From the NCBI GenBank assembly GCA_965217995.1, contig CBDCKB010000004.1, positions 643,788 through 707,787 of the forward strand: 64,000 nucleotides of DNA, written 5' to 3'. Positions within the stretch are counted from its first letter, which is position 1. Every line of letters starts with the position of its first letter. Under the pieces are notes generated by a model. That model worked only from the letters and a program-made list of their open reading frames with translations. It did not search any database and was not told the origin of the DNA. Positions 2,685 to 52,100 of the stretch are shown here, one piece after another. This DNA is from Rhodobacterales bacterium. Its GTDB lineage: Bacteria; Pseudomonadota; Alphaproteobacteria; Rhodobacterales; CAZPXZ01. The position numbers were made by a program, and so were the translations under genes.

Positions 2685-4930
2685 TGGCGCGCGCCGCTCT
2701 CGTTTTGGTGTGGTGTACGCTGGTCATCATCGCCTCTGTACATTTGCCGCGTCTTGTTTTTGACAACGATACCTGGCTTCCACTGGACAACCCGCAACGT
2801 GTGGAACTGGAAAATTTCCGCACCGAATTTGAGCCGGACGAAGTCCTGCTGGTGGTTCTTGAATTGGAGCGTGATTTTTTTGACCCGTGGCAGACGGAAC
2901 AGATCAACCGCCTGGATGCGGCTCTCACCGATCTTCCGGAAACCCGCTCGGTGCTGTCGCCGCTGAGCGCCACCACCATTATCGACACGGGGGACACCCT
3001 GGAGATCGGCAGTTTCAGCGAGGCCCTGAAAAACAATCTTCTGGCTGATTCCCAGGCCTATGAACGGGAGTTCCTGCGCTCGCCCTACGCCGGCAAGCTG
3101 CTGTCCGAGAACCGGCGCACGGTGCTGTTGCGCGTGGCCATCGCCCGGGCGGATTCCAGCCATCGCGCGGCGGCTGTGGAGGAGGTGGTCGAAACCGTCC
3201 GCCGCCATGGTTTCAACACGGTCCACCTGGCCGGTGAGGCGGCACTCAAAAATGAACTCAACCGCATAACCCGCGACCAATTGCCGCTGCTGCTCGCTCT
3301 GGCGGCCATCGTGCTGGCGGTGTTTTTGCGGATTGGTTGCGGCAACTGGTCGCGCGCCGTCTTGATTTTCACCGCCGCTGCCGCTTCCGTCACTTCCTGC
3401 CTCGGCCTCATGGCCGCCTTCGCCTGGCCGATGAACGCGGTACTGCTGGTGCTGCCGGTCATGGTGGCGGTCATCGCGGTGGCGGACGGCCTGCATATCC
3501 TGGCATGCTGGGACGCGCTCGCGGCGGTGCCCAAGAACATGCGCCTTGTCGAAACCGTCCGCCAGAGCTGGCTGCCCTGCCTCGGCGCCACCGTCACTAG
3601 TGCCGCGGGGTTTGGCGCCTTCGCCGTCAGCGAATTGACGCCGCTGCATCACTTCGGTGCCGCCTCTGCGGTTTCCATTGTGTATGCCTACCCGCTGATT
3701 ACCGGCGCGGTCTGGGGTGGGCTGCTGCTGTTTCCCGCGCTGGCAACGGCACCGGCGCGGCATCCCGGATGGGCATGGCTGACGGCCGTGGCCGGCCGCA
3801 TCAGCGGCACCTTTCCGCGGCGGGTGACGGCCATTGCGCTGTGCATGGCGGCACTGTTCGGTGGCGGACTCGGGTTGATCCGGACCGAGACCAATTTTCT
3901 CTCGGTGTTTTTTGCCGAGGACAGCGCGGTGCGCCAATCCTTCGACCTAGTGGACGCTGAACTCGGTGGTTCCGGGCGCGTCGAAGTGGTGCTGCGCAGT
4001 GGCGGGGAATCCTTTGCCACGGTCGCCAGAATGCGTGAAGTGGAGGTGCTGGCCGCCCGGTTCACCGGCATCCCCACCGTCAGCAATGTGGACAGCTACC
4101 TTCTGCCGCTGGGTATGACCGATCAGGCCTTTGGCGGCAGCGGTCGGCCGCAGACCGATCCGGCACTGGCCCAGGAGTTGCTGTTTCTTTCCTTGTCCCG
4201 CAGCGAGACAAAGCGCGATGTCCTGTCGCCCTATCTTGATTTCAGCCACAGCGACGCACGCCTCAGCCTGCAGACGCCAAACCTTAACTCGCCGCCATTG
4301 CAGCAGACCATCGAGGACGTCACCGCCATCGCCGCCGCCAGCAGCAGCGATCTGCAAACCACGGTCACCGGCTTTGGCGTGTTCATTCACAACCTGGGTG
4401 AGCAGGTACTGCGCACCCAGGCTGTCAGCATCCTGCTGACGTTGTTGGTTATCGGTGCATTGCTGCTGGTCCAGTTCGGCCTGCGCGTCGGCCTCTGCGG
4501 CCTGGCCGCCAACCTTCTGCCGGTCATCGCCACCGCCGGTCTGGTGGCATGGCTCGATTACCCCTACGATTTTGCCGTCATCCTCATCACCGGCATCACC
4601 CTCGGCCTGTCGGTGGATGACACCATCCACTTTCTGTACCACTACCGCCGCGCCGGCGGTCGCAGGGACGGATGCTGGCGCGCCCTCGGGCGCACTTCGC
4701 GGCCCATCGTCGTTACCACCCTCCTGTTCTGCTGCGGCCTCGGCGTGGTCGCCGTTTCGGATCTTGTTGTATTGCGGCGTTTTGCCCTGTTCGCTATGTT
4801 TGGCATGGGTGTGTCGCTGGCTTCGGTGCTGGTGTTCCTGCCGGCGGCACTCGTGATGGTTATGCCGGATCCGGTTTCTCGGTCGAGAGTCTCCGCGGAA
4901 TCGGGGCATCGGGAGGAGGAAGAAGAATGA
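2684..4930 (+). CDS. MMPL/RND-superfamily membrane exporter
   Basis: 748-aa ORF with two hydrophobic 6-TM-like blocks separated by soluble loops. The LGLSVDDTIHFLYHY motif is characteristic of MMPL/RND permeases. Confidence 0.85.
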   Translation: MARAALVLVWCTLVIIASVHLPRLVFDNDTWLPLDNPQRVELENFRTEFEPDEVLLVVLELERDFFDPWQTEQINRLDAALTDLPETRSVLSPLSATTIIDTGDTLEIGSFSEALKNNLLADSQAYEREFLRSPYAGKLLSENRRTVLLRVAIARADSSHRAAAVEEVVETVRRHGFNTVHLAGEAALKNELNRITRDQLPLLLALAAIVLAVFLRIGCGNWSRAVLIFTAAAASVTSCLGLMAAFAWPMNAVLLVLPVMVAVIAVADGLHILACWDALAAVPKNMRLVETVRQSWLPCLGATVTSAAGFGAFAVSELTPLHHFGAASAVSIVYAYPLITGAVWGGLLLFPALATAPARHPGWAWLTAVAGRISGTFPRRVTAIALCMAALFGGGLGLIRTETNFLSVFFAEDSAVRQSFDLVDAELGGSGRVEVVLRSGGESFATVARMREVEVLAARFTGIPTVSNVDSYLLPLGMTDQAFGGSGRPQTDPALAQELLFLSLSRSETKRDVLSPYLDFSHSDARLSLQTPNLNSPPLQQTIEDVTAIAAASSSDLQTTVTGFGVFIHNLGEQVLRTQAVSILLTLLVIGALLLVQFGLRVGLCGLAANLLPVIATAGLVAWLDYPYDFAVILITGITLGLSVDDTIHFLYHYRRAGGRRDGCWRALGRTSRPIVVTTLLFCCGLGVVAVSDLVVLRRFALFAMFGMGVSLASVLVFLPAALVMVMPDPVSRSRVSAESGHREEEEE

Positions 4931-10434: not shown

Positions 10435-12369
<1,935 letters not shown>

Positions 12370-46257: not shown

Positions 46258-46786
46258 GGGGGCGCACCCCCCAGGGATACTGCACCCGGTCGGGCCTTGC
46301 GGGCACTGGTTTTTCCCGCCGGGGTCGGCGGCGGTCAGGTGGCGACGGAGGCTCTCTCCAGGGGGGTAGATACCCGATGGGCGTCATTCCGCCAGGTGCG
46401 GCATGGGGCCCTGGTTGTGGTGAACCACGAGGCGCCGGGCATCCTGCCTGTACCCGTCGAGGGTGGCTGCGACAGAGGAGGTTTCGCAGAGCACCTTGCG
46501 CCAGGTGCGCCGGCACCGCTCGACGCAGCCACTCTGTTCGGGACTGCGTGGTGGGATGACCTGCATGGCCATGCCGCGCTCCTGGAAGGGTGCATCGAAG
46601 GCGCCGCGGAACCCGGAGCCGTGTCGGCCTGGCCCCCGGATGACGACCGGGAAGGTCTCGAGGATGCGCTCGAAGGGCACTCGCATGCTGCGCGCCGAAG
46701 GGGTGGTGACGAATTCTGCGGCGATCAGTTTCGGTACCAGACTGTTCGGCATGTGAGCTGCAGCCGGGCTGCTGTCCATCCGGCAC
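46253..46786 (-). mobile_element. degraded rve-type (IS481-family-like) transposase fragment, copy 1
   Basis: Broken frames contain ...VIPPRSPEQSGCVERCRRTWRK... and ...HHNQGPMPHLAE / PHAAPGGMTPIGY. Homologous to the copies at 48977-49916 and 51898-52100. Confidence 0.7.
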
Positions 46787-48112
46787 TGGCCGCTGCCATC
46801 ATTGCCTGGGTCCGATTGTGCCCAGCCTGGTCAGGGATGGCCGGACGGCATGCTTGATTCGATCCCGCAACAGATATCCCATCTGCCCAAGGGGGCTGAC
46901 CGATACCCTATGCTCGCCCGTCAAGATATTTGAGCAGCGCAGCACCGGATTTGCTCTCAATGAGCCGATCGGAAATCTCCATCAGCAATTCGGGATCGGA
47001 TATCTGATCCAGATGCTCTGTCAGCCGTCCGACCGTCTCCGGATCAAATTTCGATGCCGCCTGACGGCACAGTCTCTTCCGAATTGCGTCCAGTATTTCC
47101 TCGTGGCCTGTCTCAAGCCATCCCTTGACCCAGTCGGGATCCGGCCAGTCCATCACAAGTTCTTCCATCTGCTTCATCTGCCCCAGCGGGGGCAGATCCG
47201 GGTCGATATGCTTTTGGATATCGTCACGCATTGTTGAAACCTCCATAAACCAGCCGTAGAACGTCCTGGCCAAATCTTCCTTGCCAATTTCCTGCAACCG
47301 CATTCTCAAGCCGTACAACAACGGTTGCAACGCCTCGAAGGAACGCCGCTCCTGCTCCAGCGCGATTCAGGAACGACACCAGATGGTTCGGCATGTGAAC
47401 TGCAGCCGGGTTGCTGTCCATTCGACACTGGCCGCCGTCATCATTGCCTTGGTCCGATTGTGCCCAGTCTGGTCAGGGATGGCCGGACGGCATGCTTGAT
47501 TCGATCCCGCAGCAAATATCCCATCTGCCCAAAGGGGCTGACCGATACCCTATGCCCGCCCGTCAAGACATTTGAGCAACGCGGCACCGGATTTGCTCTC
47601 AGTGAGCCGACTGGAAATCTTTACAAGCAATTTGGGGTCGGATATCTGATCCAGATGCTCTGTCAGCCGTTCGACCGTTTCCGGATCAAATTTCGATGCC
47701 GCCTGACGGCACAGTTCCTTCCGAAATGCCCCCAGCGTTTTCTCGCAACCTTCCGTTAGACCTTTCTCGAGACCTTTCTCGAGACCTTCCGTTAGACCTT
47801 CCTCGCGGCCTTCCTTGCGACCTTCCATATGGCCTGTCTCAAGCCATCCCTTGACCCAGTCGGGATCCGGCCAGTCCATCACAAGTTCTTCCATCTGCTT
47901 CATCTGCCCCAGCGGGGGCAGATCCGGGTCGATATGCTTTTGGATATCGTCACGCATTGTTGAAACCTCCATAAACCAGCCGTTGAACGTCCTGGTCAAA
48001 TCTCCCTTGCCAATTTCCTGCAACCGCATTCGCAAACCGCGCAACAACGGTTCGTATGCCTCGCAGGAACGCCGCTCCTGCATCAGTGCGATCAGGAACC
48101 ACACCAGATTGT
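46745..48112. repeat. head-to-tail direct duplication (unit a 46745-47386, unit b 47387-48112, roughly 90% identical apart from an 84-bp indel)
   Basis: Direct alignment of ttcggcatgtgaRctgcagccgggYtgctgtccat... through the Rpn C-terminal coding region. Junction at 47386/47387. Confidence 0.85.
46908..47330 (-). CDS. free-standing Rpn C-terminal-domain ORF created by the duplication (truncated Rpn copy; may be a pseudogene)
   Basis: The 140-aa ORF (TTG start; in-frame ATG at 47303) aligns with the C-terminus of the full Rpn: ...LRMRLQEIGKEDLARTFYGWFMEVSTMRDDIQKHIDPDLPPLGQMKQMEELVMDWPDPDWVKGWLETGH... Confidence 0.5.
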   Translation of the reverse strand: MQPLLYGLRMRLQEIGKEDLARTFYGWFMEVSTMRDDIQKHIDPDLPPLGQMKQMEELVMDWPDPDWVKGWLETGHEEILDAIRKRLCRQAASKFDPETVGRLTEHLDQISDPELLMEISDRLIESKSGAALLKYLDGRA

Positions 48113-48659: not shown

Positions 48660-48976
48660 CGAGAACACCGTTGTTTTTTGTGTATCTTCGTTCTGGCTGG
48701 CTTGGCTCCTGTAAAAGCACCCGCACCAGCCGCTTTTGTGGCATCCGTCGACCCTGCTGGGAGCAGGCGGTCGCGGATGACCGGCGATGGTTCCGGTACG
48801 GGTGGTGCTGCCGATGCATGCAGCAAGCCGCCCGCCCGCTGTGCGGTGGGGGCGGGGACCGGGCGGGATTTGCAGGCGGACGCACCGTCCCCGCTCCACC
48901 CTCGGATTCTGCATGCACTCGTCATGGAAAACACTTTTTACGAATCGCCTCGGAGCTGTCAACCCGCTGTACGCAA

Positions 48977-49916
48977 TCACTCCATCGGGCATTCCTGACA
49001 GGCCCTGCCGGCGGTGGTGTTTTCGCCGGAATCGGTGGCGGTCAGGTTGCGGCGGAGGCTCTCTCCAGGGTGTTCGGGGAGATCCTCGATGGGCGTCCTT
49101 CCGCCCGGTGCGGCATGGGGCCGGATATGGTTGTGATGAACCACGAAGCGCCGGGCATCCTGGCTGTACTCGTCGAGAGTGGCTGCGACGGAGGAGGTTT
49201 CGTAGAGCTTCCTGCGCCCGGTGCGCTGGCACCGCCCGACGCAGCCATTCTGTTTGGGACTGCAGGGCTGGATGACCTGCATGGCAATGTCGCGCTCTTG
49301 GAGAAGTTCCCGAAGACGCCATGGAACTCTCGGTGCCGTTGTCGGTCTGGACCCCCGGATTTCGACCGGGAAGGTCTTGAGGATGCGCTTGGAGGCCCCC
49401 GTATGTTGCGCGCCGAAGGGGTGGTGACGTTCCGCGGCGATCAGTTTCGAGGCCGGGTCGCAGACCGTCAGCTGATAGATCCAGCGGCCGGGGGGATCGC
49501 GCAGAAACAGCGTGTCGGCCTGCACCCTCTCTCCGGGTTGGTGGGGGCGGCTGCCCTTCTGCCGGCGGGTTGCCGGGGGCGCGGAGTGGATCGCCTATGG
49601 GGGCTGCTGGCGGGCCTGAGGCGGCAAACTCTTGTTTTTCTTGGGATATCTCAGGATCCGCCCGACCGTCGCTTTAGAGGTTTGGAAGCCCACGCCCCAC
49701 AGAAGGATCACAATCTTGCCGGGCCCCCAGGTGCGCTGCATGGGGGCTGAACGAATGTCGGGGATCGCAGTTTGAGCTTGTGGGACCCTGCCCGGCGACG
49801 CAGCCGCCGGGGCCGTCGGGAGTCCGGAGCAGGGTCTGAACTCCAAAGCCATTGAGCAGCTCGCCCGAAAGCTTTTTGTGGATTGATGAAAGGCGGATAT
49901 CCGCACTCCTCAACAA
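48977..49916 (-). mobile_element. most complete copy of the rve-type (IS481-family-like) transposase, frameshifted (pseudogene), copy 2
   Basis: N-terminal HTH-like WGPGKIVILLWGVGFQTSKATVGRILR (frame of ORF 49595..49906). Catalytic part GERVQADTLFL...QVIQPCSPKQNGCVGRCQRT...HHNHIRPHAAPGGRTP (ORF 48977..49525). Several frame breaks. Confidence 0.7.
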
Positions 49917-49919
49917 GCA

Positions 49920-50429
49920 CTACAGCAGTTCGTTAAAAGGCTGTATTCTGAATTTGTGATTGTTCGTCCAGTCGGCACATATGTTGTTGGCTTGTTCGAC
50001 GGTCAACACACGACATGTAATCAAATTCAGAATGATGCCCCGCGTGCACAGGATACAGAGTTCCTTCCCGAAAATACGTGCCTTAACACGTGCATGGTTG
50101 ATGGCTTGCTTGTCATCAATAGCCAATCGATAATCGCGATTAAGCGCAACCGCAATAGCTGAACACTCACCGGCACCCAAGCGCCTCCCGGCAACCACGA
50201 GTTCCCTCAAATGATCAAATATCTTGACTTCATCCCGATCCAGATCGAGTTCTTCAACAAGATAGCGGGCGGTAAAAGCCGCCGTGTAATGAATTTTTTC
50301 ATTGGAGTAGGTAACTTCCTCGGCAATATGTTTTGTGGTACAAAATGAATCCGGGTATCGGCCAATCAAGTCCATGCGACCGATGCGCAAGAAATTGATC
50401 AGGACGGATGCATCAACAACGACGCGCAT
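49920..50429 (-). CDS. PIN-domain protein (PIN_3/DUF3368-like)
   Basis: MRVVVDASVLINFLRIGRMDLI..., ...LGAGECSAIAVALNRDYRLAIDDKQA..., ...TRGIILNLI. This matches the DUF3368 layout (vvDtS.Li.L..i..LdLL / GkGEaeaIaLA / lLlDD..AR). Confidence 0.75.
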   Translation of the reverse strand: MRVVVDASVLINFLRIGRMDLIGRYPDSFCTTKHIAEEVTYSNEKIHYTAAFTARYLVEELDLDRDEVKIFDHLRELVVAGRRLGAGECSAIAVALNRDYRLAIDDKQAINHARVKARIFGKELCILCTRGIILNLITCRVLTVEQANNICADWTNNHKFRIQPFNELL

Positions 50430-50451
50430 TGGAGTAAACCAATGATGCCAA

Positions 50452-51735
50452 TCAATCCGGGCACGGGGTCTTTGCTAATTCAAGCATTTCGTCACTGTCA
50501 ATTTCAAGTTTTCTGCCAATTTCCGCAAGCCGACCACGGGAAATCTCTTCCTGACGAAAAGCTTCAACCGACAAGCGTCTGAGCTGGTTGTGAATGTCCC
50601 ATTCGCAGGCTTCTGACAATGCGGTTTTGGAGGGCAATTCGTGGTGGGTCAGCTGTTTGATATGTGCTCTACCGTCGCCACTTTTTTCGGCAAGCTCTCC
50701 CCCTTCACTGGCGCTAATATGGCCCAGGTTTTTCAATCGCCAAACCGCTACCTCGTAGCTAACGCCAAAATGGTGTGCAAGAACAGCTACGTCCTGACAC
50801 GTTGCTGATTTGGGCTTCGTCCGCGGACAGGTATTTGCTTCGGTCTGCATTTCATCGGCGGAATCAAAACCTATCTGTTGGCGCGCAACTGGATATCCCT
50901 TACCGATTTTTTCAAGTTGCTCTGCAACACCTTCCTGCGGCATTAAAAATGCTGCGGCAAAGGCATTCGCCCTTGTCTCCATGAAATTCGCCGGTTTCTT
51001 TGCGAAATTGGACAAGCTTTCCTGCCGCGTCATGATAACGGCACTGTCCAAGCGATCAAAAAGAGCATGCGCGAACTCGTGCAAATAGGAGAAGCGCCTA
51101 CGCACGGGCGGATTCTGCTGGTTGACCAGAATGGCCAGTCCGACATCCGGATGATTCACGAACAAACCAGAAAGCCCATCGGGGAGCTCAGTCGCTTCCG
51201 TCCAAATGCCCTGGTCGCTGATAAGCTTTTCAATATTTTGGATAGGCTCATCCCCGATACCAAGTCGGCGACGCTCTTCCTCGGCTACCTTCTCACCTTG
51301 ACAAACAGGACTACGGGGCAGATTCACCGTTTGTGTGCCATAATCGGGGGGAGTCGACTCAACCGTCTGATTGAGCATTCTCCGCAGGGCCGCGCCTTCG
51401 CTGTACAAATCGAACAGCCGCCGCAGTTTAACTTTAGCCTCCGAAGAAAACTCAATCTCCTGCGCAGACTCCAGTTCGGACAGTTTTCGATGCAAGACAA
51501 CAAGCAGGCCGTCTTCGCTCAATCTTTCGTCTGCCGAGAGGAAACCCGACGCCGGACACTGATAGATTTCAGCCAGCTTTGTAATTTCAAACACCGATAC
51601 CGCACACTGACCGGTCTCCAGGTTGATTATATCCGTACGAGTCAGATCAACCGCATCGGCGGCTTCTTTCAGGCTGATGCCACGCTGTTCCCGTGCGGTT
51701 TGCAGTCGGTTTCCAATCTGCGATGCACTGAGCAT
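50452..51735 (-). CDS. XRE-family HTH fused to an ImmA/IrrE (COG2856) zinc metallopeptidase
   Basis: N-terminal HTH (LQTAREQRGISLKEAADAVDLTRTDIINLETG), HEFAHALFD HExxH motif, and VLAHHFGVSYEVAVWRLKNLGHI. AT-rich. GGGAGA RBS. Confidence 0.85.
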   Translation of the reverse strand: MLSASQIGNRLQTAREQRGISLKEAADAVDLTRTDIINLETGQCAVSVFEITKLAEIYQCPASGFLSADERLSEDGLLVVLHRKLSELESAQEIEFSSEAKVKLRRLFDLYSEGAALRRMLNQTVESTPPDYGTQTVNLPRSPVCQGEKVAEEERRRLGIGDEPIQNIEKLISDQGIWTEATELPDGLSGLFVNHPDVGLAILVNQQNPPVRRRFSYLHEFAHALFDRLDSAVIMTRQESLSNFAKKPANFMETRANAFAAAFLMPQEGVAEQLEKIGKGYPVARQQIGFDSADEMQTEANTCPRTKPKSATCQDVAVLAHHFGVSYEVAVWRLKNLGHISASEGGELAEKSGDGRAHIKQLTHHELPSKTALSEACEWDIHNQLRRLSVEAFRQEEISRGRLAEIGRKLEIDSDEMLELAKTPCPD

Positions 51736-51789
51736 GCTTCGTCTCCCTGCCTTAACATTACACCATCGCGCAGGCGGTCCACGGGGTCA

Positions 51790-51803
51790 GTGGGAATTCC
51801 CAC
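51790..51803. promoter_or_regulatory. 14-bp perfect palindrome GTGGGAATTCCCAC upstream of the HTH-ImmA gene (candidate operator)
   Basis: Read directly. Lies 55-68 bp upstream of the ATG at 51735. Confidence 0.4.
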
Positions 51804-51897
51804 ATACCAGCTGTCGGAGCCGCCACTTCTCCTTTGAATACCAAGAACACAGGATTCTAGGCCAAACGCCAGATCAGTCAAACCGATATACGCACAA

Positions 51898-52100
51898 TCA
51901 CTGCATATGGCATTCCTGGCGGGCCCTGCCGGCGTTGGTTTTTCCGCTGGGATCGGTGGCGGTCAGGTTGCGACAGAGGCTCTCTCCATGGTGCTTGCGT
52001 AGATACCCGATGGGCGTCATTCCGCCAGGTGCGGCATGGGGCCGGATATGGTTGTGATGAACCACGAAGCGCCGGGCATCCTGCCTGTACTCGTCGAGGT
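51898..52100 (-). mobile_element. 3' fragment of the same rve-type transposase, copy 3
   Basis: ...LDEYRQDARRFVVHHNHIRPHAAPGGMTPIGYL...; the DNA is near-identical to copy 2 up to an abrupt break near 52100. Confidence 0.7.

Follow-up and report, generated by a model that had tools for sequence, protein, structure and literature searches.

What holds a PIN-domain nuclease in check when the gene in front of it encodes a transcriptional regulator fused to a peptidase? The question is raised by a two-gene cassette in a Rhodobacterales bacterium (NCBI GenBank assembly GCA_965217995.1), which we analysed within a stretch of 64,000 nucleotides (nt) of contig CBDCKB010000004.1 (positions 643,788 to 707,787 of the forward strand), referred to here as the window. 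The first gene (50452..51735, minus strand) is an open reading frame (ORF) of 427 amino acids (aa) that joins an XRE-type helix-turn-helix (HTH) domain, an M78 (ImmA/IrrE) peptidase domain and a UPF0175-like tail, and it is the putative antitoxin and regulator of the cassette. After a spacer of 22 nt (50430..50451, minus strand) follows the predicted toxin gene (49920..50429, minus strand), which encodes a PIN-domain nuclease of 169 aa from the COG2405/DUF3368 family. An earlier note, made from the letters of the same DNA, had described the fusion, the gap and the PIN protein together with the motifs HEFAHALFD, VVDASVLINF, GAGECSAIAVA and LAIDDKQA; both minus-strand ORFs and every one of these motifs were recovered here. 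With fairly high confidence, we conclude that the two genes form a functional unit of the toxin-antitoxin (TA) or defence type, and we suggest that the inhibitor of the nuclease may be carried on the C-terminal end of the fusion.

The first line of evidence is the constancy of the pair. Relatives of the PIN protein were found at 80 loci in a pattern scan that covered one genome per species, and a further 4 loci were added by exact look-up. At all 84 loci the gene directly upstream, on the same strand, encodes a full-length HTH-M78 homolog. Between the two tblastn matches there are mostly 30-90 nt, and the match to the fusion begins within its first ~34 residues and extends to at least residue 410, except where a locus meets a contig end or is split into pieces. 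The pairing, which the earlier note had singled out for a survey of neighbourhoods, is thus kept throughout the set. The other neighbours vary from locus to locus, and it is because of this variation that we regard the fusion and the PIN gene as the conserved unit. Hosts of the pair are mainly Alphaproteobacteria, with further examples in Acidobacteriota, Thermodesulfobacteriota, Spirochaetia, Binatia, Dadabacteria, Palauibacter and Pirellulales, and some copies lie on conjugative plasmids; in Gloeobacter, a homolog of the fusion protein alone was found. Homologs of the fusion protein number more than 1000, and the best 120 of these are mostly 404-460 aa long and cover at least 91% of the query.

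The pair also occurs on mobile DNA. A PIN homolog is encoded on nine plasmid records, and the pair is present at both plasmid loci that we inspected, from Rhizobium and Methylomonas, where public annotation reads 'XRE family transcriptional regulator' followed by 'hypothetical protein'. On the Methylomonas sp. DH-1 plasmid (NZ_CP014361; locus L087, 581-6844) the pair stands beside divergent genes for a multiubiquitin-domain protein and a ThiF-family protein, with a RelE/ParE TA pair and a tyrosine recombinase as further neighbours; in a study of Synechocystis, multiubiquitin cassettes adjoin COG2856 TA loci.

Given that its domain content is that of ImmR plus ImmA, the fusion might instead be the immunity regulator of a prophage or an integrative element, with the PIN gene as unrelated cargo. 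Xre-COG2856 operons are described as abundant in prophages in Makarova 2009 (PMC2701414), and nine IMG/VR contigs carry the pair, one of them beside a large serine recombinase. These nine are the only IMG/VR contigs with the pair, and a curated phage collection of 50,697 records held no match to it. The PIN gene is adjacent at 84 of 84 loci even as all other neighbours vary, and around the cassette in the window there are only insertion sequence (IS) fragments, with integrase, excisionase and phage structural genes absent. We reject the prophage-immunity explanation on the lack of phage matches and the variable neighbours, and consider it very improbable; among the outcomes that would count against a TA cassette, the earlier note had named a pair that does not recur in other genomes and a prophage immunity region unrelated to the PIN gene, and neither is what the loci look like. 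On the IMG/VR contig with the recombinase (L098, 6945-12431) the pair is followed by a DUF2924 gene and the large serine recombinase, with an HsdR-like type I restriction gene on the opposite strand, a setting that is an integrative element or a defence island.

We next consider the two proteins in turn. An AlphaFold2 (AF2) model of the PIN protein, built on 30 homologs, has the PIN fold at a predicted local distance difference test (pLDDT) score of 92, and its Foldseek matches are Nob1, SSO1118 (2mdt) and VapC structures, each at probability 1.0. In Matelska 2017 (PMC5499597), 2mdt is the structural representative of COG2405. The acidic residues D6, E38, E88 and D105/D106 are invariant or nearly so among homologs, and the three active-site patterns (D, GxGE and DD) are all matched by 68 of 79 genome-locus homologs, the remainder differing from them trivially. 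All of the PIN homologs listed carry a precomputed PF11848 (DUF3368) annotation. Consistent with this, a profile of the family aligned by hhalign with DUF3368 PIN proteins encoded beside stand-alone UPF0175 proteins gave a probability of 94% (E 1.4e-7, 148 columns). The 169-aa protein is a COG2405/DUF3368 PIN.

This assignment replaces the label 'PIN_3' used in the earlier note, since neither the window protein nor 29 homologs match PIN_3 (PF13470) at E <= 1, the only hit being a sub-threshold match to PIN. When the same proteins were scanned with hmmscan against the current copy of Pfam-A, they also had no DUF3368 match at E <= 1, possibly because the model was altered or removed from one Pfam version to the next. 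A search of the PIN profile against PDB sequences gave nothing useful, the fold being recognised by structure search. In PADLOC, residues 1-115 of the PIN protein match the candidate defence family PDC-S70 (E 3.5e-10), a PIN representative of which protected E. coli from T4, T5 and T7 (preprint 10.1101/2024.09.26.614923).

The upstream protein begins with an XRE-type HTH domain (residues 6-63; 51547..51720, minus strand; Pfam HTH_31 E 1.4e-8, HTH_3 E 2e-7) and continues into an M78 zinc-metallopeptidase domain (residues 174-335; 50731..51216, minus strand; Pfam Peptidase_M78 E 6e-17). The motif HEFAHALFD occupies residues 219-227, with HEFAH at nt 51067-51081. In an alignment of 35 full-length homologs the motif residues H219, E220 and H223 are conserved, as is the third-ligand residue E253; in the larger set of complete genome-locus homologs, HExxH is present in 75 of 75 and the third-ligand glutamate motif E..(A/S)(N/D).F(A/V) in 73 of 75. 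In PADLOC the fusion matches 16 profiles of RmrA, the RosmerTA antitoxin (best E 2.9e-25, aligned over residues ~8-277), as well as capP (E 1e-18) and capH, and there is a match below the cut-off to the NCBIfam spr1629 repressor/antitoxin family. The AF2 model of the whole fusion (pLDDT 81) is matched in Foldseek, for its peptidase part, by CapP (7t5t, E 3.5e-5) and by IrrE/PprI (3dte, 8sln), and its HTH by C.BclI, ClgR, the N-terminal domain of CapH, ImmR and DdrO. Together, the constant pairing, the two conserved active sites and the matches to RmrA and PDC-S70 bear out the suggestion of the earlier note that this is a TA or defence cassette.

How, then, might the nuclease be neutralised? 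Behind the peptidase domain lies a flexible linker (residues 367-378; 50602..50637, minus strand), which has an AF2 pLDDT below 50 and poorly conserved alignment columns. It leads into a C-terminal module (residues 372-427; 50455..50622, minus strand) that AF2 models as three confident helices (381-394, 400-409 and 414-422) at a pLDDT of about 90. Among the 35 full-length homologs aligned, no stretch outside the catalytic core is better conserved than the last ~50 residues, which have the consensus ELRxQLxRLAxEAFRQEEISRGRLxEIARKL and invariant L388, A392, I398, S399, G401 and R402. When homolog tails were scanned singly, 26 of 30 matched Pfam UPF0175, which was the top and usually the sole family. 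Their E-values range from 1.6e-6 to 4e-2 (best series 1.6e-6, 4.7e-5, 3.4e-4, 5.5e-4 and 2e-3), and the best tail scores 28.1 bits against a UPF0175 gathering cut-off of 27.9. A three-helix unit is in keeping with Makarova 2009, where COG2886 is predicted to be an HTH.

The likeness to UPF0175 extends to distant relatives of the cassette. An XRE-M78 fusion encoded on an Agrobacterium plasmid (25-28% identity) ends in a UPF0175-like tail (E 0.008) and is partnered by a diverged PIN (hhalign 94.7%). In Anabaena the tail of another fusion is likewise UPF0175-like (E 0.002), and its partner is only weakly PIN-like (PDC-S70 E 0.005; hhalign probability 1.5%). A Bradyrhizobium fusion is followed by a truncated ORF that we judged by eye to be PIN-like. 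At the Agrobacterium locus (pAoF64/95; L094, 520-5867) the fusion gene overlaps that for the 207-aa diverged PIN, which is annotated 'hypothetical protein', and the flanks hold a QueC-like (7-cyano-7-deazaguanine synthase) gene, a DUF3800 gene and dinB.

Searches beyond the cassette family were less informative. Against PDB sequences, in which no solved UPF0175 was found, the tail profile matched designed helical-repeat proteins and homeodomains only, which we take as chance matches. Against 1.84 billion representative sequences it gave 272 matches, and the 30 short ones inspected look like fragments or mis-called C-termini of the long family, so that they neither support nor refute homology to stand-alone UPF0175. 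Stand-alone tail-like ORFs were absent from the window and from the loci examined for them. According to Matelska 2017, UPF0175 occurs exclusively with COG2405 PINs. The simplest account of the tail, which has moderately good support, is that a canonical UPF0175-COG2405 pair would have had its antitoxin fused onto the C-terminus of an XRE-M78 protein. The earlier note held that the usual UPF0175 slot is taken by the protease-regulator fusion; we find instead that the fusion keeps a UPF0175-like C-terminal module, the proposed PIN-neutralising domain, so that the customary partner appears to be fused on rather than lost.

Upstream of the cassette we looked at signals for its expression. A sigma-70-like candidate promoter, TTGACT, 16 nt, TAGAAT (51854..51881, minus strand), scores 10/12 in a consensus scan, both hexamers being identical in L001, the closest relative of the locus, and a GGGAGA stretch lies 7 nt upstream of the fusion start codon. 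A perfect 14-bp palindrome, GTGGGAATTCCCAC (51790..51803), is a candidate operator 55-68 nt upstream of the ATG. At L001 it is conserved at 13 of 14 positions and at the same distance, a comparison that is uninformative because the whole upstream region is 87% identical. A second palindrome, GAGGGAATTCCCTC at 10991-11004, shares the core GGGAATTCCC and was considered as a related site; it lies inside the dnaK coding sequence and was rejected as a chance occurrence, which cautions against over-reading the operator candidate.

Other members of the family provide a clearer picture. In 20 loci (L042-L079) the inverted repeat TGTCAA-N9-TTGACA, allowing at most one mismatch, stands 64-80 nt ahead of the fusion gene; it is found at no other place in 650 kb, and its right half is the -35 consensus. 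It is likely, to judge from position and sequence, a clade-specific operator that overlaps the promoter. In other clades the inverted repeats near the promoter differ in sequence and again lie just ahead of the fusion gene, and such clade-specific repeats make autoregulation through the HTH plausible for the family. The palindrome in the window is a reasonable but unproven operator candidate.

The setting of the cassette in the genome bears on whether it is functional. It lies in an IS mosaic of ~6 kb, made up of three rve_3 fragments and duplicated Rpn/Transposase_31 pieces, with groESL on one side and an mscS-like gene on the other. A short IS fragment, an rve_3 integrase-core remnant, lies on the promoter side (51895..52099, minus strand; direct repeat D3/D6/D7; Pfam rve_3 E 0.005), and a longer copy of the same fragment lies downstream of the PIN gene (48958..49827, minus strand; direct repeats; Pfam rve_3 E 3e-11; blastn to L001). 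Direct copies at 48974-49177 and 51895-52098, 89% identical, flank the cassette. Its GC content is 46-55% against 65-72% in the flanks, or 15-20 points lower. The earlier note had described the cassette as AT-rich, set between directly oriented IS remnants and horizontally acquired, and composition, IS context and plasmid-borne copies all support acquisition by horizontal transfer.

A third direct copy of the rve_3 fragment lies further left in the window (46311-46733). An Rpn/YhgA-like (Transposase_31) gene is partly tandem-duplicated in its C-terminal part (46725-48092 and 47739-47846), as two repeat pairs of 300 and 270 nt with 90-93% identity, and contains a run of 12-nt tandem repeats that code for GLEKGLEKGLTEG-type peptide repeats. 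Copies of the rve_3 fragment stand on both sides of the cassette at L001 as well (1672-2530 and 4595-4696), the short fragment being co-linear with the cassette. In that locus the upstream copy is the long one and the downstream copy the short one, which is the reverse of the arrangement in the window. It looks as if a unit of IS fragment and cassette was duplicated and later trimmed in different ways.

Such surroundings raise the alternative that the cassette is a decaying passenger, brought in with the IS elements and now silent or functionless, and kept by pure addiction, losing the antitoxin being lethal, or because it arrived recently. The rve_3 and Rpn/Transposase_31 mosaic, the low GC content and the bracketing of the related L001 copy by the same IS fragment all favour this. 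Decay is nevertheless hard to see in the genes themselves: neither ORF is truncated, every catalytic or invariant residue is kept, the promoter-like site and the GGGAGA stretch are intact, and a near-identical locus, with a fusion gene 98% identical, is present in a second assembly (L088). We therefore regard the passenger explanation as quite unlikely.

These data allow us to propose a mechanism for a self-contained two-gene TA module of the Xre-COG2856 or RosmerTA-like kind. The N-terminal XRE HTH would probably repress the operon at a promoter-proximal inverted repeat, for which GTGGGAATTCCCAC is the candidate here. The UPF0175-like module, held on a flexible tether, may bind and neutralise the PIN protein, as stand-alone UPF0175 proteins are thought to do for COG2405 PINs. 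The M78 domain, a zinc peptidase of the ImmA/IrrE/CapP type, is predicted from its conserved ligands to be catalytically competent. By analogy with ImmA/ImmR, IrrE/DdrO and CapP/CapH, a signal such as phage infection, DNA damage or single-stranded DNA, or loss of the element would activate the peptidase. Once active, the peptidase could cut the very antitoxin of which it is part, either in cis or inside an oligomer; a plausible site is a disordered linker, and residues 367-378 are one such region where we infer that cleavage is possible. Cleavage would both derepress the operon and free the PIN protein, with RNA cleavage and growth arrest as the presumed outcome, acting as abortive infection or as addiction. 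Taken whole, with neutralisation by the tail and proteolytic release both included, we judge this mechanism to be slightly on the probable side of evenly balanced.

The assignment of roles in this mechanism could also be turned around, so that the M78 peptidase is the toxic component, the HTH its antidote and the PIN protein an accessory. There is precedent for such an arrangement: in Makarova 2009 a table lists COG2856 as predicted toxin and Xre as antitoxin, and a Brucella ZnMP/HTH-Xre system is described that way (PMC10538038). Other work points in the opposite direction. In RosmerTA the Zn-peptidase protein is treated as the antitoxin and a deletion of rmrA was not obtainable, and NetFlax (Ernits 2023, PMC10440598) classes the ImmA hub as antitoxin. 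The PIN protein of the cassette, for its part, is a member of a toxin family, and its nuclease active site is complete. Of the explanations considered here, reversed roles seem to us the most improbable.

Several findings weigh against the mechanism proposed above, in which the tail neutralises the PIN protein and the peptidase releases it. The window's own tail matches UPF0175 weakly (E 0.13 when scanned alone, 0.048 in the full protein). An hhalign comparison of the tail with a narrow alignment of stand-alone UPF0175, built from 32 genuine stand-alone proteins that were all database entries with PF03683, is also weak (probability 13%, P 0.002, 23 columns), the part aligned being the core motif LAxEAYRxxxIS/LT. 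Because of this weak result, the claim that the tail is UPF0175-like rests mainly on the Pfam scans. On the side of the toxin, the PIN protein matched no PADLOC RmrT model. The cassette sits amid IS debris, and expression in the host genome might be lacking. The window contains 10 perfect 14-bp palindromes against 7.1 in shuffled sequence, so that GTGGGAATTCCCAC is not statistically unusual, and it lies ~45-57 nt downstream of the best promoter-like site and not over it. The palindrome reported in the earlier note is thus real, with its length of 14 bp and its position 55-68 bp upstream, while the description of it as an obvious operator falls away, given that 14-bp palindromes are not rare here. 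In the literature we found no experimental study of this subfamily of fusion and COG2405 PIN.

A further point concerns the peptidase. Two metagenomic homologs have a degenerate HExxH, P0185 (RGFAH) and P0200 (LGFAH). The latter belongs to a paralogous pair at L085, a locus from the same metagenome sample as L001 and L088, where the fusion P0200 (2590-3855) is 51% identical to that of the window and is followed by an intact-looking PIN ORF (3855-~4400) left uncalled in the source assembly. That P0200 keeps its PIN partner despite LGFAH suggests neutralisation without catalysis, which may be dispensable in some lineages. Neutralisation of this kind fits a binding module, yet it also permits a peptidase that acts as a sensor only.

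This observation leads to the alternative that we take most seriously, although we still consider it unlikely. Here the cassette would be the same kind of TA or defence module, with the M78 domain serving as a non-cleaving sensor or scaffold, or cleaving an external protein such as one from a phage. The body of the protein would then do the neutralising, or ordinary degradation of the antitoxin by host proteases would come into play, and the UPF0175-like tail would serve in DNA binding, as a second HTH, or in dimerisation. In its favour, UPF0175/COG2886 was predicted to be an HTH DNA-binding domain in Makarova 2009, the degenerate-HExxH paralogs retain a PIN partner, and the likeness of the tail to UPF0175 is only moderate. 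Conservation of HExxH in all 75 complete homologs, and of the third ligand in 73 of them, argues on the contrary that catalysis matters. In addition, UPF0175-like tails go with COG2405-like PINs even where the fusions are 25-28% identical, and the restriction of UPF0175 to COG2405 PINs is more readily explained by a partner specific to the toxin than by a general DNA-binding protein. We accordingly keep to the model in which the tail is the PIN-binding part and the peptidase is active.

For this genome, the cassette is an ordinary mobile TA or defence cassette. Its wider significance lies in the subfamily, which is widespread (found in 80 species genomes in a single scan, across several phyla and on conjugative plasmids), and in its layout, where the three functions proposed for ImmA-type antitoxins, namely DNA binding, signal-dependent proteolysis and toxin neutralisation, appear to map onto separable modules. 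Such a layout opens the three-component Xre-COG2856-PIN systems, a prediction of long standing, to direct testing. Apparently a conventional UPF0175-COG2405 pair has been put under the control of a peptidase and its signal by fusion of UPF0175 to the end of a protease-regulator. A more general and tentative idea, which we hold to be possible and somewhat doubtful, is that RosmerTA/ImmA-type antitoxins are modular, with a generic XRE-HTH and M78 sensor/regulator body that captures small antitoxin domains as toxin-specific C-terminal adaptors. Should such adaptors be general (RelB-like tails beside RelE, for instance), they would explain how the ImmA hub pairs with many unrelated toxins, and would offer a simple way to predict which part of an ImmA-type antitoxin binds the toxin.

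How does the cassette compare with systems already described? The earlier note, which mentioned that Xre-COG2856 fusions have been predicted as TA or defence components, knew of no characterisation of this specific pairing. The pairing is not uncharted: Xre-COG2856 with PIN partners, including COG2405, appears in PMC2701414, PMC5499597 and PMC10440598. The predicted three-component Xre-COG2856(DUF955)-PIN system has exactly the architecture of the cassette, in which a COG2405 PIN directly follows an HTH-DUF955 fusion. Makarova 2009 reports dozens of Xre-COG2856 fusions beside PIN or RelE toxins and proposes a three-component system, and Matelska 2017 counts COG2405 as one of the PIN families whose genes are co-transcribed with HTH and DUF955, Geobacillus sp. 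Y412MC61 being the example. Both papers are computational, and as far as their text was available the Xre HTH is in them the antitoxin or the protease substrate, with no mention that we found of a fused UPF0175-like tail. The architecture is already known as a comparative-genomics prediction, and the fused tail is a small refinement of it.

RosmerTA (RmrT/RmrA; Millman et al. 2022, Ernits et al. 2023), an anti-phage TA system, is similar in being a two-gene operon whose antitoxin combines an XRE HTH with an ImmA/M78 Zn-peptidase, and Ernits 2023 associates the ImmA/Rosmer hub antitoxin with PIN-like toxins. It differs in its toxin, since a COG2405 PIN lies outside the RmrT families, and in the extent of its antitoxin: RmrA profiles cover residues ~8-277 of the fusion, whereas the C-terminal third with the UPF0175-like tail is specific to the cassette subfamily. 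PDC-S70, the PADLOC candidate, is listed as a one-gene system found mostly in archaea, whereas the PIN of the cassette family is always paired with the fusion.

The canonical pairs of UPF0175 (COG2886) with COG2405/DUF3368, which are VapBC-like type II TA systems, share with the cassette the order of genes, antitoxin first, a homologous PIN and the antitoxin core motif. Canonical UPF0175 is a stand-alone protein of ~87 aa, however, whereas the module of the cassette forms the last ~50 residues of a 427-aa XRE/metallopeptidase protein, behind an HTH-M78 body of 370 aa, and is without the N- and C-terminal extensions of the stand-alone form. In loci L089-L091 (2501-4256), canonical UPF0175 and DUF3368 pairs occur as two convergent copies beside an MmeI-type restriction-modification gene, and at L089 one DUF3368 PIN is split into two ORFs.

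Finally, ImmA/ImmR of ICEBs1, IrrE/DdrO of Deinococcus and CapP/CapH of CBASS regulation likewise combine an M78 peptidase with an XRE repressor. In these systems protease and repressor are separate proteins that control the transcription of other genes. In the cassette the two are joined in a single polypeptide, with no separate XRE gene adjacent to the fusion gene, and the output under control would be the co-encoded nuclease, released, if the analogy with these systems holds, by cleavage of the fusion by itself.

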